The position numbers and the translations under genes are program-made. Below the pieces are notes generated by a model. That model saw only the letters and a program-made list of their open reading frames with translations, did not search any database and was not told the origin of the DNA. A stretch of 62,877 bases of DNA, counting the filler, from Collodictyon triciliatum (taxonomy: Eukaryota): assembly GCA_043381765.1 (NCBI GenBank). It is 13 parts of 13 records of this genome, joined end to end, with 100 filler letters (N's around TTAATTAATTAA, not from the genome) between each part and the next. Parts side by side here need not be neighbours in the genome. Positions count along the whole stretch, not along the records: positions 37,390 to 42,747 come from JBHJMP010005266.1; 12 more parts are not named here. One strand, given 5' to 3'. Of the stretch, positions 6,170 to 42,747 are shown piece by piece. Positions within the stretch are counted from its first letter, which is position 1. Every line of letters starts with the position of its first letter.

Positions 6170-7929
6170 NNNNNNNNNNNNNNNNNNNNNNNNNNNNNNN
6201 NNNNNNNNNNNNNNNNNNNNNNNNNNNNNNNNNNNNNNNNNNNNNNNNNNNNNNNNNNNNNNNNNNNNNNNNNNNNNNNNNNNNNNNNNNNNNNNNNNNN
6301 NNNNNNNNNNNNNNNNNNNNNNNNNNNNNNNNNNNNNNNNNNNNNNNNNNNNNNNNNNNNNNNNNNNNNNNNNNNNNNNNNNNNNNNNNNNNNNNNNNNN
6401 NNNNNNNNNNNNNNNNNNNNNNNNNNNNNNNNNNNNNNNNNNNNNNNNNNNNNNNNNNNNNNNNNNNNNNNNNNNNNNNNNNNNNNNNNNAACATAAAAC
6501 AAAACAAAACAAAACAAAACAAAACAAAACGAAATAAAGTAAAATAAAGTGAAGTAAAATAAAATAAAATAAAAACTGGGTAATAGTCTCACACCCGCAG
6601 TCGGCCTAGCGCACCAGGACACTTGCACCGCAACTATGAGTCCGAGTCCATCACTATCACAAACCCCAGAACAATGCCTCTCCCCGCCTTTCTGCATGTC
6701 TTCCTGGCAAAGTCTTCCGCTTGAAACACACCTCACAGGCGCACACATCACCAAAAAGCGAAGCCTGCCGCGGTTTTCTTTGGTTGGGATGGACAAATCT
6801 GTCGATGAAAACGGATTCCATTTGCGGAATAATCAGTGGTTGTCGCTGTCATGTTTAAAGCACCCGGTTTCCCTCGCGCGGTTGCCAGCGAGAAGGCGGC
6901 TCCTTTGGTAGATTTCAGAGTCTGTTGCCGGCATGGAATAGGTTCTGTGAGAGGTGTATGTTCAGTAATATCGGCATGTGCTTGCCTTCGTGCGCCCTAA
7001 GCAAGTGGATGCAGATGGCATGCGAAAAATTGTAGCTTACTTTGGTGATATTGTTAAAGGCACGGCAAGATGTTGTTGTCCTTGGTAGGGAAAGCAAGTT
7101 ACGAAAACATGAGGAAAAGAGGAGATAAAAATACGATGTATTCTGCGACCAAGGCGCTGGTAGCTTTGCACGTACATTGGTATTTCTAAGGCAAACATAC
7201 CCCAGTTTTGTCAGGTATATTAGGTTAGATGTTATTTGAATCGAATAAAGATAAAAAAAATATTTGGGCTAGTAGTTGACGAAGTGATACATATCCCATA
7301 AAAGCTAGGTGCTTGAAACTCATTTGCTCAGTGTTTGTAATTTGTCACATATCCATTATCCCATGATTATGTATGCTTTTTTTCCCCTTTATTCGATTCA
7401 AGGGAAGGAAGGATTCTTAGATTATTTTTTTTTTTTTTTTTTACAGTCCGACGTGGTTGTATGCGCCTTGGTTGAAAGCAGTGATGCGTGTCTGATAAGG
7501 GTGCAGGCCGGCTTGGTAGGGAAGCTGGATTCATGGTTCATCACTATGCACCCGAGAGGGTTGGGAATAATTACAACTCTAAAGAGCTGCAACCATGATT
7601 GTGTATGTTAATAGTATTATTACGACTATATGGGTTTGCGTGTCCCTTAATTTCATTTAACAAATAATACGCTATAATGATACGATGCTAATTAAGGATA
7701 GAAATTCGAGAGGCCTTGAATTATTCTAACACGGGAGATTTGATACTCTGCAGGATGCTATTTGTGCGATTATATGGCCAGACTGCTTCACCTCAAGATT
7801 GTCCTCACTCGCGTAGGGTGATAATTTGCTCTGGGTGTTCCACCTTCTATATCAATTACTCGGGCTCGGCGTCAATTATATAGTTTAACATAAATTGCAG
7901 AATGATGTGCGGATGCAATATCTATTAAT

Positions 7930-37289: not shown

Positions 37290-37473
37290 NNNNNNNNNNN
37301 NNNNNNNNNNNNNNNNNNNNNNNNNNNNNNNNNTTAATTAATTAANNNNNNNNNNNNNNNNNNNNNNNNNNNNNNNNNNNNNNNNNNNNTGAATGCATAC
37401 AACATAATATTAAAAAAAAAAAAAAAAAACGCATTATGTTAATAAAAAATTTTTTTGTTAAATTATTTTTTTT

Positions 37474-37504
<31 letters not shown>

Positions 37505-37524
37505 GTAAAGGAAGGCAGACAAAC

Positions 37525-38591
37525 CTTGCTGACATCACTGAAGTCGTGTAGCATATTGTTTTTCGGCCCAGACGTCTGAAGCTGATTTCCAGCTAATCCA
37601 ACCTTCAGAAGATATGAATGCCCGTGAGGTCTTCTGCATTTTCCATCGTGATGAACAAGCATGTGCCCAGCCTCAAATCGGTATTGTTTCTCCATAGAGA
37701 ACTGATTCCACTTTACATCTCCTGTTTCTAGGTGATCTAAAATATATCTAGTTATAGATATGCGCTTAATGGTGAACGCCAGAGAAAATAAAACTTCACA
37801 TTGAATCAAACGATAATGCAGACAAAGAAAAGTATATTTCTATTATTATTACTATTTTCATTTTCAAAAAAAAAAAAAAAAAACAGAATAAGTCATAACA
37901 TTAAATCACACACAGAAATCGTAATGACAAACTTGAATTATAGATAACTGGCTTTCCTGTACCGCACGGCGATGTGAGGTTATTATGTGCTTCTCCCCAC
38001 ACCGACTGCGCCTTGATTTTTTGGAGCTCCTTCAAGATTCGAAGCCGATGGCCCAATACCTTCACTTCAAGGTCCTTGTGTAGCATGTTTTCATCCAGCA
38101 TGTGCAAAACAGAGCCATCGATCTGCTGCGAGGCGAAGGCCTTGGCATACTTTTCGTCTGGGAAGAGCTGCTCCACATACTTTGCCACCTGTGCTGGGCT
38201 CCAGGAGGCAACCTGCCTGAGTTGCGTCGGTGTGTTTGGCTCCTTCTCGGCATTTGTTTGCCCTTCAGTAGAGTAAAAAGGATAGGCTCAAAACTTGCAC
38301 TCGGGTTGAGCGCTGGGATAGGAGCTCGGGGCTGCTGTTGAGAAAGACAAACAACAATAGAGAAGAGACGAGGAAGAACAAATAAAAAAAAATAACAAAA
38401 AAAATAACAAAAAAAATAACAAAAAAAATAACAAAAAAAAAAAGAACAAAAAGAGACAGGAACGCACCTTTAGAGTGGATCGAGCAGTTTATGTCTGTGC
38501 AAGCCTCGCTGGAGTGAGTGCGAAGCTGGGTTACCTGACACAGACGCTTCTTTGGTCCAAGCGCGAAGTTGCGAGTGATTCTGCAAAGCAT
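37525..38591 (-). CDS. queD: SAM domain-QueD/PTPS-I (6-carboxytetrahydropterin synthase-like) fusion with mitochondrial-like presequence, 3' truncated
   Basis: Exons 38591-38468, 38262-37963 and 37736-37525 join in frame. SAM domain WSPAQVAKYV...FASQQIDGSVLHMLDENMLHKDLEVKVLGHRLRILKEL. T-fold enzyme RFEAGHMLVHHDGKCRRPHGHSYLLKV...MLHDFSDV. Confidence 0.85.
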
Positions 38592-39135
38592 CCTTTCTTC
38601 CCGTCCTTCTTGCGGCGTTCGCCTATTCCAAGATTCAATAAGGGCTCCAAAAAACTTGATTGTTGCTGGTTGGCTGCTCCAAACACAAAAAAGAACATTC
38701 CATGAAAGAATCCGATTCCCGTGCTGTTCCGATAATCCTCCCGAGTGGCAGGGACGTCCAAATGCTCGTCCGTCCTTCCTTCCTTCCTTCCTTCTTTCTT
38801 TCTTGTCCCTCTCATGACATTATATTTCCTTACATCTTTCTTTAATCCTTTCTTGTTTTTCTTTCTTTCGTTATTCAAGCTCATCAAGGAACACATTCGG
38901 TGGTACGAACAAACTGCCGATTCCCACAAAAAAAAAAAAATTAAATAAAAATAGATGTATCGCACTAGAATGAGCTCCACGAAAAGGCTAATGAATTAAA
39001 TAGGCAATAAATCCAGAGACCGCAATACGACAGTGCTTCAAGATAGTTCTTTCATCCAGAGCTTTTGCTTATTTTGTCTGGTGTTTCATTAGGGGAGAAT
39101 ATATATTATCATTTGTCACTTATTTTCGCGTGTGT

Positions 39136-41150
39136 TTAATGAATAAGGTTAGAGTCCATTAAATCACGAAAGAAAGCATCCATGTGGGACATGAGCGCCC
39201 ACGAGTCCGTTCTGATTTTCGCGAGCGTCGAGTTATCGCCCACAGTGAATTGGAAAAGAACGTGAAAGCGAGGGGGGATAAACGCCATGACCGATATGAC
39301 TCTCGATATCGATTTTTCATGAGTTTCGGATACTTGGATAGTAAATGGCTTCAATGATAATTCAACCAACTTTCGAACTTTATCTCCAGGCTCATCAAGA
39401 ACCTTGACTGATTCAGCACCGAAGGCACTAATGCCATAATCCGTGATTAGTTTTCTCTTTTAAAATTACATCGTGGTTCATTTATGTTGGTTTAGTTCAA
39501 ATGAGACATTTTTCGCATCGAATTACAATTGTAATGCCAATGGCGAGTTTCAAAAAAAAATATTGAGAAAAGAAAAATTAATAATCGAGTTACGCACCTG
39601 GTTGCTTTTACTCTCGTGGGGTGTGCCGTCCATTTTGGAGTATGAATGTTATCCCAGAGATAGCTAAATATGGATGACACCGCCTTGTGTGAAATAAATA
39701 AAAAATAAAATAATAATAAATAAATAATAAATAAATAAATAATAAATAAATAAGAGTCAAAAAAGAAAAATATATAACACATTGAAATACTAAAAATCTA
39801 ATCCAAAAAAAGAAAAGAAATGGAATGACACGCAAGCACAAAAGATAACCTGTGTATTGGTTTCTGATTCTATATTTGGAGGAGGAAACACTGGAATGAA
39901 CATATCGTATAAGCGCAGGGGTAAACCATAAGAAACTGGACCGGCACATGTAACTCCCTCTGCGTTAGTGAATGCACACCGTATTCCAATCACTGTAAAA
40001 TTACATGATATTGAGTTGAATGGATATGTTAAACGATAGCGACAGGAAGAAAATCATGATTTTTTGGGTGATAAAATGGTGAAATCAAACCGCCAGGCGT
40101 GGGTTCAGTGGGCTTAAACTGAACAACCATTTTGTAAGAGTACGGGAAATGATCTTTTATTTTTTCCCAGAGGATATGTCAGAATATAATCGAGATATTT
40201 TGGGTATATCACTAATCACAAATTACACTGCTGAATTACGAACTAGACTAAATACAAGATGATGTTTCATCGGAAGAGCTAGAGGGAGCGAGGCAAGGTA
40301 CGTAATAAAAAACGGATGCGCTTTCAAGTCCCTGAATAAAACGTACCATGGCGCTTTCAGAATAAAATATCGTGACATAATATGAGTCATAGTCATGCAA
40401 AACCCGAATGAGACAATTAAATGGAATTAATAAAGGATAGTTAGGAAATATTACAGGTGGCAGGAATTCTAACTGGAGTGCAAATATCTGTTTTGGTGTC
40501 ACAGACTCGGTTATCGCCTAATGTCGACCGTTTTCAATATGTATACGAGAAGAAAACCAGAGTCAAGCACCATACAGACTGACCAAACGACGGAAGTGTT
40601 TATTTACTCACTTTTTGGTGATATCGCAGACGAACCAGAATTTTAATATTTGCCACAAACTTATCATGGAATATCATTAAAAGGTAATCTTCCATCAAAT
40701 TTCTAATATAAGTAGGAGTTAAAATAGTAAATAACGGGGAAATCATAAATCTTAGGATAAAAAGCAATCTTAGCATTTTCTAACCCAGTGAACTCGAGGG
40801 CGTCGGCTGAAGGACTTATGCAAGAGCTGGTTTTAATAAAATAATCATATATGAATACTTTTACTCATTTTTTTAAATGGACACACATATTTTGAGCATT
40901 TTATCATGGGCCTGGTTGAAATATCAAATAAGGAAGAATAATATGGAGGGAAAACCTCTTATCAGAAGTGAGAGGATAAAATGATAAAAAGTCAACATTC
41001 ATCATTTGGGACGTCGAGGTAAGAACGGGGTAAACATGGGAATCTGTGAGCCGGTTTGCTTCACTCGTGAATAAAATAAACAAGAGAAATTTCAGTTTCG
41101 GTGGATGAGATGGGGTGATATTTTTGGCATATGCAGTTGGGAAAATCACT
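39136..41150 (-). CDS. Possible multi-exon hypothetical gene or decayed gene
   Basis: Several minus-strand coding-like blocks separated by AT-rich intron-like stretches. Frames are not fully resolved and no family was recognised. Confidence 0.3.
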
Positions 41151-42652
41151 TACATCCATTTTCAGTAGAATAATTTAGAAGCAAGAAATTGGCCAATTTT
41201 TCTCCATGAACATGTGTGAATAGAGTGAGATAGTAACCTGCTCTGTCTCGAATATCTGAGATATGTTTTTGAATTTTAATTTACTTGAAAGGATGCTTTT
41301 TATATTAGATGCAATTCTTTTTCTATCTGTTCCTTTCTCTTTTTTTTTTTTTCTGTTTAAAACCTAAATCGGCATAATTCGTGTGGCAGTAATGAAGCAG
41401 CTCAGAAACTTGGCTGAAAATAACTTGTTGGGAATGTCTCAGAATCAAAATACGAATGATGATCAAGAATCGATTGCCCAGCTGATAAAAAAAAATCATG
41501 TCAAGTTATTTATTAGTGAAATATTGGTATTTTTTTCCTTGACTAAGTTAAAACATGCAGCTTATACTACGAATATTATCAAACAGAAAAATTATATAGT
41601 AATGATAGGGGGAAAAACCTCCCAATCACCCTCTTCAGAGTAGGTTTTCAGGAACTCGAAAAGAAATGAGATACTGTCCTGCAAAGGGGATTTTTCATTT
41701 CAATGTTGCTAGGGATGAAAAGCTAGTATAATACATCGACCTAGATGTGACTCTAACTGTAATATATCGATTTGTTACCGAATAGAGACATACCGAAGGA
41801 TTGATGGATTTTTCAGAAACAACACGAGCGAGAAGCATAAAGTACTCGTGTATTTTATTCGAAGGAACTATGAATTAAAATGGTTATTAATTGAGCAACC
41901 ATAACTAAAGTGGTGTTATTCAAGATAAAAAAAACGCAGTTTTCTTTGCATCGAATAAAGGGGAAACCCCCCAGGTTTATGTTACATTTTTAAAACTTAT
42001 GTCAATAAAAACATTCTAGGCTGATTGCTGTATGACAATATTACAAAATTTACCACTTGAAATCAAATAAAGGTTGTAGGAAGAGAGAAAACGTAGCCCC
42101 AATGTTTGTGAGTCCTTAAAGATCCTATAAGGCCATATAATCTTTATCAGTTTGAAAAGTACCTCGATATATGATTTAAACATTTATCTCTCAACATGTT
42201 TGAAACCTGTTGACAAAAGCAATAAGGTCTGGGATAAAATTAGGGCGTTGCGTAACCAAGTCCAATTGATATTGAACGACTTGGTTGAAGGTGTCCTATT
42301 GCAAATTCATGCATATTAGGGCATTTAAGATTAAAGTTCCATATTAAGTATTGAAATTAAACTAAGATACCGCTAAGATAGCATAATCAAATAATAAATA
42401 TTGCATGGAAAAAGTGTAGCGCATATTTTAGTGCACCTGCGAACTGGTCACCAATTGAAGCAGACAATTAAACGCAGCAAGAGCATGTCGGCTAGTTTTC
42501 TAGTGGTGGGTAATGATCAATCACAAACCAATCTTGAGCCACCGAGCTCTAAGAAAAGAACAATATTTATACTAGTGAGAAGAAATCCCTACATTCTTGT
42601 GTGACTTTGAAAATATTATTCAGGTAAAATCCATGGAAATACAAAACAATAG

Positions 42653-42747
42653 AGAAGAAGAAGAAGAAGAAGAAGAAGAAGAAGAAGAAGAAGAAGAAGA
42701 AGAAGAAGAAGAAGAAGAAGAAGAAGAAGAAGAAGAAGAAGAAGAAG
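42653..42747. repeat. (GAA)n microsatellite
   Basis: Direct reading at contig end. Confidence 0.95.

Follow-up and report, generated by a model that had tools for sequence, protein, structure and literature searches.

The window, a stretch of 62,877 nucleotides of Collodictyon triciliatum DNA (assembly GCA_043381765.1), contained the 5' part of an intron-containing gene on its minus strand, with the ATG start at 38591 and the end of exon 3 at 37525, as placed in the preliminary description. Spliced exons 1 to 3 amounted to 657 nt, or 219 codons without a stop, out of ~283 codons for the gene, and they encoded a basic N-terminal extension, a complete SAM (sterile alpha motif) domain and the N-terminal half of a QueD-type T-fold. 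The features are listed below in the direction of the gene.

38592..38623, minus strand: 5' untranslated region; X1 cDNA contigs extend to 38616 and 38623
38468..38591, minus strand: exon 1, coding part, 41 codons and 1 base; X1 record positions 1-150
38263..38467, minus strand: intron 1, 205 nt, GT..AG, 35% G+C; record numbering unbroken across it (150/151 in X1, 46/47 in X2)
37933..38262, minus strand: exon 2, with a linker, the SAM domain and a conserved P-C-G-T-G-K-P-V stretch; X1 record 151-479
38012..38212, minus strand: complete SAM domain; Pfam PF07647 and PF00536
37728..37932, minus strand: intron 2, 205 nt, GT..AG, 26% G+C; cDNA joint from 37727 to 37933 in one contig each of X1 and X2
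37525..37727, minus strand: exon 3, N-terminal half of the QueD-type T-fold; X1 record 480-684, X2 377-581, X8 92-236
37618..37638, minus strand: C-R-R-P-H-G-H, the PTPS-I/QueD signature CxxxHGH with the catalytic Cys and two zinc-binding His (motif as in part of PMC5041015)
37390..37524, minus strand: beginning of intron 3 (GTTTGT...), which passes into poly-A/T tracts at the contig end; cDNA contigs depart from the genome here
37290..37389, no strand: artificial contig joint N44-TTAATTAATTAA-N44; below it lies a different contig

The gene's contig ends within intron 3 at this artificial joint, which is one of 12 across the window, mostly ~5.4 kb apart. In practice, caution is needed with genes at the joints, which are truncated because the window consists of contigs glued in a chain. 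The orthologue P0003 of Diphylleia rotans (EukProt EP00002 P015568) is a protein of 286 aa with a "complete" ORF from a de novo transcriptome assembly. No tblastn match to its residues 228-286, the C-terminal half of the T-fold, was found anywhere in the window, and tblastn of the whole window with three homologues gave no match beyond exon 3. A metagenome scan for the missing half with the Diphylleia protein returned 56 pattern matches, 0 of which were confirmed, and one with an exact 27-nt stretch of exon 3 returned 0 matches.

Transcripts and exon boundaries

Two cDNA contigs, of 918 nt in X1 and 710 nt in X2, covered 38616-38467, 38261-37933 and 37727-37523 with unbroken record numbering. 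The joint between 37727 and 37933 skips 205 nt that are bounded by CT..AC on the plus strand and hence by GT..AG when read along the gene. The boundaries of introns 1 and 2 were set after a 1-nt shift of the cDNA placement, which gave an equally good fit. The three exons had previously been described as splicing in frame, and the reading frame was indeed open over 219 codons, but the simple join at 'tgcg/gtacag' and 'ttttag/at' was contradicted by the RNA, according to which the donor site actually follows 37933 and the acceptor site precedes 37727. Exon 3 was also covered without differences by a contig of a freshwater metatranscriptome from another study. Beyond exon 3, three cDNA contigs carried 234, 129 and 91 nt more of sequence that is absent from the window, and 234 nt suffices for 63 codons and a stop as in Diphylleia.

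The 5' end of the transcript was located at ~38623, beyond which the X1 cDNA carried a 22-nt loose end without a match in the genome, apparently the reverse complement of a template-switch oligo. A sequence scan of the 5' untranslated region found no ATG between 38623 and 38591. Intron 1 contained a T-rich 12-nt tandem repeat. In the X2 contig, the T6 run after 38016 was longer by one T, and this would, if real, shift the frame downstream of the SAM domain; the additional T was absent from X1 at four times the depth. An N/Y difference was also noted at 37560. In X3, the only match was 34 nt long, showed 3 differences within a low-complexity stretch and was dismissed as meaningless.

The gene is a real, nuclear, spliced and expressed intron-containing gene of a protist of the diphylleid (CRuMs) lineage, related to Diphylleia. 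The SAM and PTPS exons occur in the same spliced transcript, which upholds the proposal of a single eukaryotic gene; the idea that they belong to separate genes failed against the cDNA. It is extremely improbable that the fusion is an artefact of neighbouring genes, of a chimeric assembly or of bacterial contamination. Such an origin might be suspected given that the window is assembled from small contigs and that the Diphylleia protein derives from a de novo assembly, but the genomic exon order, two spliced cDNA contigs and the transcript of a second species agree, and, with its canonical GT..AG introns and a SAM domain, the contig cannot be bacterial.

Domains of the encoded protein

Exon 1 encoded a basic N-terminus without an acidic residue before position 29, followed by a C-x-D-x2-C-x2-H-S motif, and it matched residues 6-45 of the Diphylleia protein (tblastn E 5e-4). 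The first 28 residues carried a net charge of +6, in agreement with the acid-free, basic N-terminus of the preliminary description. Extensions were present in all three CRuMs proteins, and those of Diphylleia and Rigifila were basic as well, with their first acidic residues at positions 38 and 25. The extension of ~28 residues is compatible, by its composition, with a putative organellar (mitochondrial) presequence. The claim of use in the mitochondrion was not sustained: despite the basic, acid-free composition, the amphipathic moment of the window N-terminus did not rise above that of shuffled sequences, being reached by 28% of 2000 shuffles (3% for Diphylleia and 56% for Rigifila).

The SAM domain is complete, as originally described, matching PF07647 over profile positions 1-66 of 66 (E 5.5e-12, 46.1 bits, cut-off 20.5) and PF00536 over positions 2-64 of 64 (E 8.3e-11, 42.5 bits, cut-off 23). 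The nearest solved chains were the SAM domains of SARM1 (E 1.2e-10), followed by those of L3MBTL3 and Polyhomeotic, with matches ranging to 1e-4. These best solved matches (SARM1 SAM1-2, Polyhomeotic and L3MBTL3) are self-associating SAM domains. They are joined to TIR or chromatin modules, whereas the partner of the SAM domain in the window is a T-fold enzyme of metabolism. In the AF2 model of the Diphylleia protein, the SAM region was folded from a single sequence and was poor (pLDDT 51-92), and therefore nothing was concluded from the model on the SAM domain or the Cys/His motifs.

Exon 3 matched the PTPS family (PF01242) with an E of 8.4e-13 and 48.8 bits (cut-off 22.4). The T-fold pterin synthase with KCRRPHGH that had been reported was borne out by this match and by K-C-R-R-P-H-G-H at 37641-37618, but only profile positions 3-53 of 121 lie in the window. 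The signatures of the family, as set out in a passage of PMC5041015, are CxxxHGH for PTPS-I/QueD, CxxxxxHGH for PTPS-II and ExxHGH for PTPS-III. The motif of exon 3 follows the first of these; three residues, not five as in PTPS-II, separate Cys from HGH, and Arg instead of the Glu of PTPS-III is found three residues ahead of HGH. The NCBIfam equivalog for QueD, TIGR03367, has a cut-off of 89.25 bits, above which the Diphylleia protein scored (91.0 bits) and below which the homologue of Rigifila ramosa (P0004, EukProt EP00004 P020084, 155 aa) scored (87.4 bits); the window fragment reached 51.9 bits, below the cut-off as expected from half a domain. The Diphylleia protein was closer to E. coli QueD (4ntm/4ntk, E 1.9e-19) than to rat and human PTPS (2e-4) by sequence, and the same held for the fold (Foldseek, target-normalised TM-score), with a TMt of 0.90 and an rmsd of 2.2 A to E. 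coli QueD vs. 0.75-0.76 to rat and human PTPS. The T-fold of its AF2 model had a pLDDT of 97-98, and residues 1-65 were below 50. Its catalytic and zinc residues (H177, C186, H190, H192, D234, H235, and E274) were invariant in 46 aligned homologues. These comparisons of sequence and fold place the domain in the QueD type (PTPS-I, COG0720), as first proposed, and in neither animal PTPS-II nor PTPS-III. An ESM Atlas search returned generic bacterial QueD/PTPS clusters only.

E. coli QueD (PDB 4ntk/4ntm/3qn0) shares the T-fold, CxxxHGH and the zinc His triad with the window domain, and the Asp-His pair and Glu with the Diphylleia orthologue. On the other hand, it is only ~34% identical, and the gene here is a nuclear one with introns, whose enzyme domain is preceded by a basic extension and a SAM domain. 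Animal PTPS-II (rat 1b66, human 3i2b) and Plasmodium PTPS-III (1y13) have the same fold and substrate but other signatures, and much weaker similarity to the diphylleid domain. The T-fold might instead function as a genuine 6-pyruvoyl-tetrahydropterin synthase, or as a similar pterin lyase, and so supply a tetrahydrobiopterin-like cofactor for hydroxylases. This is considered rather unlikely because the motif is CxxxHGH and solved PTPS-II structures are far less similar than QueD; in addition, a PTPS-I paralogue of Synechococcus is reported, in a section of PMC5041015, to have no role in BH4 synthesis. In its favor, the identical fold and substrate are accompanied by TIGR03367 scores right at the cut-off (91.0, 87.4, and 89.9), and COG0720 enzymes are described as catalytically promiscuous and difficult to assign from sequence similarity (passages of PMC5699537 and PMC5041015). 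Reduced pterins are also commonly needed by eukaryotes, in which deazapurine synthesis is not known, according to part of PMC5699537.

Relatives and origin of the fusion

The window protein and the Diphylleia protein were identical at 112 of 213 positions and formed sisters in the tree (support 99/88). The Diphylleia protein contained SAM_1/SAM_2 and a full PTPS domain (PF01242, 107.6 bits, profile positions 3-120 of 121, E 5e-31), and its order of parts was the same, with a basic N-terminus, C-x-D-x2-C-x2-H-S, SAM, the P-C-G-T-G-K-P-V linker and the QueD-type domain. It differs in belonging to another species, in being known from a transcript alone and in having a complete C-terminus, whereas the window copy is cut. 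The architecture is rare: in the lists examined, the Diphylleia protein was the only other one with SAM and PTPS, and no paper on a fusion of SAM with 6-pyruvoyl pterin synthase was found in a literature search that covered papers without their supplements. Searches on QueD/QueC/QueE in protists gave nothing on a eukaryotic QueD among the matches listed, those on PTPS-I/PTPS-III in eukaryotes gave nothing on a eukaryotic PTPS-I (including the relevant part of PMC3223725), and those on the Diphylleia rotans transcriptome or lateral gene transfer gave nothing relevant among the matches listed. The best match of an exhaustive protein search (P0008, 1501 aa, 10 stretches) was an ankyrin-repeat protein and was rejected as a false match.

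The Rigifila protein has a QueD-type domain and an N-terminal extension as in the diphylleids, but unlike the diphylleid proteins it lacks a SAM domain, and the fusion therefore arose within the diphylleid line. It grouped with the two diphylleid sequences with a support of 84/81, and of 71.8 in another tree. Other homologues without a SAM domain were found in a red alga, a glaucophyte and MMETSP transcriptomes, so QueD-type genes are not unique to this eukaryote. The domain grouped weakly with environmental Chlamydiota and the red-algal, glaucophyte and Rigifila homologues (support 80-85%). The preliminary description considered the gene to be laterally acquired, a view that the tree did not establish: the clade mixes Chlamydiota with several eukaryotes, and the AU test did not reject a single origin with another large group (p 0.443).

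The nearest named prokaryotic relatives were MAGs of Parachlamydiaceae and Waddliaceae (L002 and L003), with 53-55% identity to the Rigifila query. Chlamydiota QueD fell in the same 21-row tree group as the window domain (80/90), but it is a single-domain protein of 121-123 aa rather than a SAM fusion. The chlamydial queD was located between a gene of the amino-acid-kinase family and rpsA in L002 and L003, with the same synteny in L001. No que genes were found within +/-3 kb of the chlamydial queD, and this context is uninformative either way for a deazaguanine pathway. Genes for QueC and GTP cyclohydrolase I (FolE) were present in 3 of the 3 chlamydial relative genomes tested.

Function of the SAM-QueD protein

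QueD is the first committed enzyme of queuosine/archaeosine precursor synthesis, which eukaryotes, to our knowledge, are held to lack. Its family draws on 7,8-dihydroneopterin triphosphate, which GTP cyclohydrolase I produces. The best explanation of the diphylleid protein, and one that is judged probable, is an active QueD-like pterin enzyme with SAM-linked oligomers and a putative organellar leader. The T-fold part would assemble as bacterial QueD does and, with its His-His-His zinc site and the CxxxHGH Cys, would turn 7,8-dihydroneopterin triphosphate into 6-carboxy-5,6,7,8-tetrahydropterin or a closely related pterin. Each subunit would contribute one SAM domain, and these domains may tie the oligomers together or to a SAM-bearing partner; the preliminary description had proposed polymerisation or RNA binding as their possible roles. 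It counts against this explanation that the Asp-His pair and the C-terminal Glu fall outside the window copy, in which only the N-terminal half of the T-fold is visible. The SAM domain would be a rare assembly module on a small metabolic oligomer and could reveal how such enzymes are scaffolded.

Most eukaryotes are stated, in part of PMC5699537, not to make queuosine de novo and to salvage queuine, and the product of a QueD would consequently have no known downstream use here. The finding that a eukaryotic QueD-type gene with an organelle-like leader is expressed and conserved prompts the question of what use eukaryotes have for 6-carboxytetrahydropterin or a related pterin, and since homologues without a SAM domain occur in other eukaryotes, this question extends past one protist. 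The enzyme could be the first committed step of a complete organellar pathway for de novo 7-deazaguanine (preQ0/queuosine-type) synthesis. The QueD-type domain, the QueC and FolE genes in the genomes of the nearest named bacterial relatives and the N-terminal extensions of all three CRuMs proteins are consistent with such a pathway, but it runs against the published view of queuine salvage quoted above and is regarded as improbable. Equally doubtful is the bolder proposal that diphylleids run a bacterial-type 7-deazaguanine/carboxypterin pathway in the mitochondrion with a QueD assembled by its fused SAM domain; if true, it would be the first case of de novo deazapurine synthesis in a eukaryote and also of a T-fold enzyme scaffolded by SAM.

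Compared with an active QueD-like enzyme, a catalytically dead T-fold that acts as a pterin-binding or structural oligomerisation module on a SAM scaffold protein is very unlikely. Metabolic enzymes do not typically carry a SAM fusion, and the C-terminal half of the protein of the window species lies outside the window, both of which would fit such a module, but no zinc or catalytic residue has been lost from the half that is visible or from the full-length Diphylleia orthologue. Moreover, exon 3 was 81-83% identical between the two species (81% over residues 165-227 of the Diphylleia protein) vs. 48% for the SAM part, and this higher identity indicates a strong constraint on the enzyme core.

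Structure and transcription of the SAM-QueD gene

The minus strand at 38591-37525 carries a single expressed gene whose product combines a basic leader with a SAM domain and a QueD-type T-fold. In the reverse complement of 38900-36600, an ATG at 38591 is followed by a basic stretch with its first acidic residue at position 29; a second open frame is SAM-like, and a third contains F-E-A-G-H and K-C-R-R-P-H-G-H. The three exons total 657 nt (219 stop-free codons). The two introns are identical in length, and intron 1 contains a T-rich 12-nt tandem repeat (~38380-38440).

Features of the SAM-QueD gene and its upstream neighbor
38591-38468, minus strand: exon 1, coding (cDNA contigs and open frame)
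38467-38263, minus strand: intron 1, 205 nt, GT..AG (cDNA joint moved by one base, fitting both sides)
38262-37933, minus strand: exon 2 (cDNA contigs and open frame)
37932-37728, minus strand: intron 2, 205 nt, GT..AG (listed cDNA joint)
37727-37525, minus strand: exon 3 (cDNA contigs and open frame)
39136-39459, minus strand: ORF at the upstream neighbor (X1 cDNA contig ending at 39135, X2 contig over 39205-39300)

The run search returned two small sequencing runs of one study, X1 and X2 (fractions of sampled words 0.34 and 0.21), and their cDNA contigs were compared with 37390-39300. A 918-nt contig of X1 covers 38616-38467, 38261-37933, and 37727-37523 (record positions 1-150, 151-479, and 480-684) and extends 234 nt past the window sequence, and the same joints occur in a 710-nt contig of X2, which extends 129 nt past it. 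The joint 37727/37933 is a 205-nt skip that reads CT..AC on the plus strand, i.e., GT..AG on the gene strand. That X1 and X2 are RNA is a guess by the search tool; since the contigs are spliced, they derive from RNA whatever their label, and since they join all three exons, the SAM and QueD exons lie in one mRNA, as the in-frame splicing proposed in the preliminary description had implied. X8, a freshwater metatranscriptome of another study, contributed a 236-nt contig that covers 37523-37667 with 0 differences and extends 91 nt further. Base differences between cDNA contigs and the window occur at 37560, 38080, and 38150, and the first changes Asn to Tyr, the residue in Diphylleia. An extra T in the T6 run after 38016 is present in X2 only, not in the deeper X1, and would shift the frame unless it is an error. 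A short X1 contig reaches 38623 and has a loose end of 22 nt that we take to resemble a template-switch oligo; if so, 38623 marks the 5' end. X1 and X2 bear different coded organism labels, although their transcripts are near-identical. Farther upstream on the minus strand, X1 has a 1221-nt cDNA contig that stops at 39135, and X2 has a 564-nt one that overlaps 39205-39300. The upstream neighbor is therefore transcribed and ends ~500 bp before the start of the SAM-QueD gene.

Pfam identified a complete SAM domain in the second frame, as claimed earlier (PF07647, E 5.5e-12, profile 1-66/66; PF00536, E 8.3e-11). The claimed T-fold pterin synthase with KCRRPHGH was recovered as a motif and as a PTPS match (PF01242, E 8.4e-13, 48.8 bits, cut-off 22.4), but not as a full domain in the window, where only profile positions 3-53/121 are covered. 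The fragment scored below the NCBIfam cut-offs of TIGR00039 (54.7 bits) and TIGR03367 (QueD; 51.9 bits) because it is only half a domain. A script located 12 N44-TTAATTAATTAA-N44 joints across 5370-61604 (e.g., 37290-37389), mostly spaced ~5.4 kb apart, and one 321-N run at 6170-6490. The window is therefore a chain of contigs, in which genes at joints are truncated and neighbors across joints are not true neighbors. The SAM-QueD gene lies at the extreme end of the contig 37390-42747: downstream of the exon 3 end (37525), an intron starting GTTTGT leads into long A/T tracts and the contig stop, and the sequence below 37290 belongs to a different contig. Beyond the three exons, tblastn with three homologues found no homologue match in the 62.9 kb (remaining matches E >= 0.18). 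The window thus lacks the C-terminal half of the T-fold.

A Diphylleia orthologue and the rarity of the fusion

When exon 3 was searched by word index against longer proteins, five of 11 candidates matched. The best (83% identical) was P0003, a 286-aa "complete" ORF of the Diphylleia rotans EukProt transcriptome with Pfam SAM_1, SAM_2, and PTPS, and the second-best was P0004 of Rigifila ramosa. The alignment of P0003 with the window protein spans the three exons, with 112/213 residues identical. P0003 has a complete PTPS domain (profile 3-120/121, E 5e-31) and 63 further residues past the stopping point of the window; judging from this comparison, a similar C-terminal stretch would fit in the 234-nt continuation of the X1 contig. 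Both proteins share an N-terminal basic part and two short motifs.

Motifs conserved between the window and Diphylleia, outside the Pfam domains
38469-38510, minus strand: C-x-D-x2-C-x2-H-S, N-terminal to SAM
37943-37970, minus strand: P-C-G-T-G-K-P-V, C-terminal to SAM

Together these motifs offer Cys/Cys/His/Cys and may, tentatively and from two sequences only, represent a candidate metal site.

With P0003 as the query, 22 of 211 candidates matched, and SAM was present in P0003 alone. A 23-row profile matched 7686 of 8000 candidates at E <= 1e-10, with SAM only in P0003 among the 120 listed, and an exhaustive HMMER search gave 1468 proteins at E <= 0.001, of which 150 were listed. No sterile alpha motif was found in the 17 proteins from the listed HMMER and profile-search matches that were given a Pfam scan, most of which were picked because they were longer or extended at the N-terminus; one of the 17 was a PTPS-radical-SAM (QueE-like) fusion, and an ankyrin protein was a false positive. 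Four proteins with other architectures among the exhaustive HMMER matches (P0137, P0032, P0117, and P0152) comprise one 394-aa PTPS-radical-SAM (QueD-QueE-like) fusion and three with two tandem PTPS domains. Among the matches listed, the SAM-PTPS fusion is known from two instances, the window and Diphylleia, and no description of a SAM-PTPS or SAM-QueD fusion, or of a eukaryotic PTPS-I, was found in the open-access main texts searched. The fusion is therefore rare and undescribed within this scope, as had been suspected. It is a real, expressed, lineage-specific SAM fusion on a QueD-type enzyme, truncated in this assembly.

Enzyme class and proposed mechanism

CxxxHGH marks PTPS-I/QueD, CxxxxxHGH PTPS-II, and ExxHGH PTPS-III (PMC5041015). 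The window motif C-R-R-P-H-G-H has the QueD spacing, with Arg at the PTPS-III Glu position. Against the TIGR03367 QueD equivalog (cut-off 89.25), P0003 scored 91.0 and P0004 87.4. Among solved structures, P0003 was closer by sequence to E. coli QueD (E 1.9e-19) than to human (3e-5) or rat PTPS (2e-4). The AlphaFold model of P0003 has pLDDT 97-98 at residues 165-286 and below 50 at residues 1-65. In Foldseek, the predicted fold best matched E. coli QueD chains (target-normalised TM-score 0.87-0.91, rmsd ~2.2 Å), whereas animal PTPS (0.73-0.76) and Plasmodium PTPS-III (~0.56) ranked behind. Across 46 aligned rows, the zinc and catalytic residues do not vary. The assignment to the QueD type rather than PTPS-II is thus upheld, and a T-fold making a PTPS-like (BH4-type) product is an unlikely alternative given this nearness to QueD in motif, sequence, and modeled fold.

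By analogy with the family, the T-fold would assemble into the oligomer typical of the family, with its active sites where subunits meet, and bind zinc via three His, and the motif Cys would serve the conversion of dihydroneopterin triphosphate to 6-carboxytetrahydropterin. This conversion is the QueD reaction as given in a publication that also describes most eukaryotes as lacking de novo queuosine synthesis (PMC5699537), with which the boldest version, an enzyme feeding the full deazapurine pathway, is at odds; we regard that version as very improbable.

The window SAM domain is closest to those of SARM1 (E 1.2e-10), followed by L3MBTL3 and Polyhomeotic. The SAM domains of these proteins are known to self-associate. 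SAM domains on the oligomer would provide multivalency, which could lead to larger assemblies or partner tethering, and the leader would direct the protein to an organelle. Residues 1-28 of the window protein have a net charge of +6 and no acidic residue, as first described; the N-termini of Diphylleia (net +4, acidic residues from 38 on) and Rigifila (net +2, from 25 on) are also basic. Shuffles matched the best 11-residue amphipathic moment in 28% (window), 3% (Diphylleia), and 56% (Rigifila) of cases. The proposed mitochondrial-like presequence is compatible with the composition, but the amphipathic helix test contributes little and the window moment does not stand above shuffles. The whole package of leader, SAM-linked oligomer, and QueD-type catalysis is the reading we favor, with some confidence.

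Relatives and origin of the QueD domain

Named SAM-less eukaryotic homologues include Porphyridium purpureum, Cyanophora paradoxa, and two MMETSP transcripts. A large "tailed" group of QueD-type proteins (P0011, P0012, P0015, P0019, P0023, P0026, and P0158-P0191) has long low-complexity C-terminal tails, often with a Cys-rich stretch directly after the domain; three scored 89.9-95.1 bits with TIGR03367, and the group looks eukaryotic by composition. Going by the named homologues, QueD-type genes occur in several eukaryotes, and it is the SAM fusion, not the presence of QueD, that is lineage-specific. A search of 185,579 prokaryotic species genomes with the Rigifila query ranked an "uncultured bacterium" MAG (L001, 55%), a Parachlamydiaceae MAG (L002, 53%), and a Waddliaceae MAG (L003, 53%) highest, ahead of Sericytochromatia, Bacteriovoracaceae, and many cyanobacteria.

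Trees were built on 127 columns. The rows were chosen by the author: of 80 loci, the quick tree (111 rows) took numbers up to 30 and from there on every third, and the careful tree's 57 rows were selected from the quick tree's rows. In the 57-row tree, the window grouped with Diphylleia (99/88), and Rigifila joined them at 84/81 (71.8 in the quick tree). A 21-row group (80/90) contained these three CRuMs rows, two Chlamydiota, L001, Cyanophora, Porphyridium, MMETSP rows, and other short proteins, separate from a well-supported cyanobacterial clade (100/96). Forcing the three CRuMs rows with all 33 "tailed" rows cost 5.2 log-likelihood units and was not rejected (AU p 0.443). The QueD domain thus appears to be of chlamydial type. 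It may have been acquired laterally, as proposed earlier, but the trees do not settle which way it was transferred or how many times.

An amino-acid-kinase-family gene, queD, and rpsA occur in this order at L001:2083-5255, L002:1060-4322, and L003:907-5705, and the synteny with the two Chlamydiota MAGs suggests that L001 is chlamydial too. All three genomes encode GTP cyclohydrolase I and two copies of QueC.
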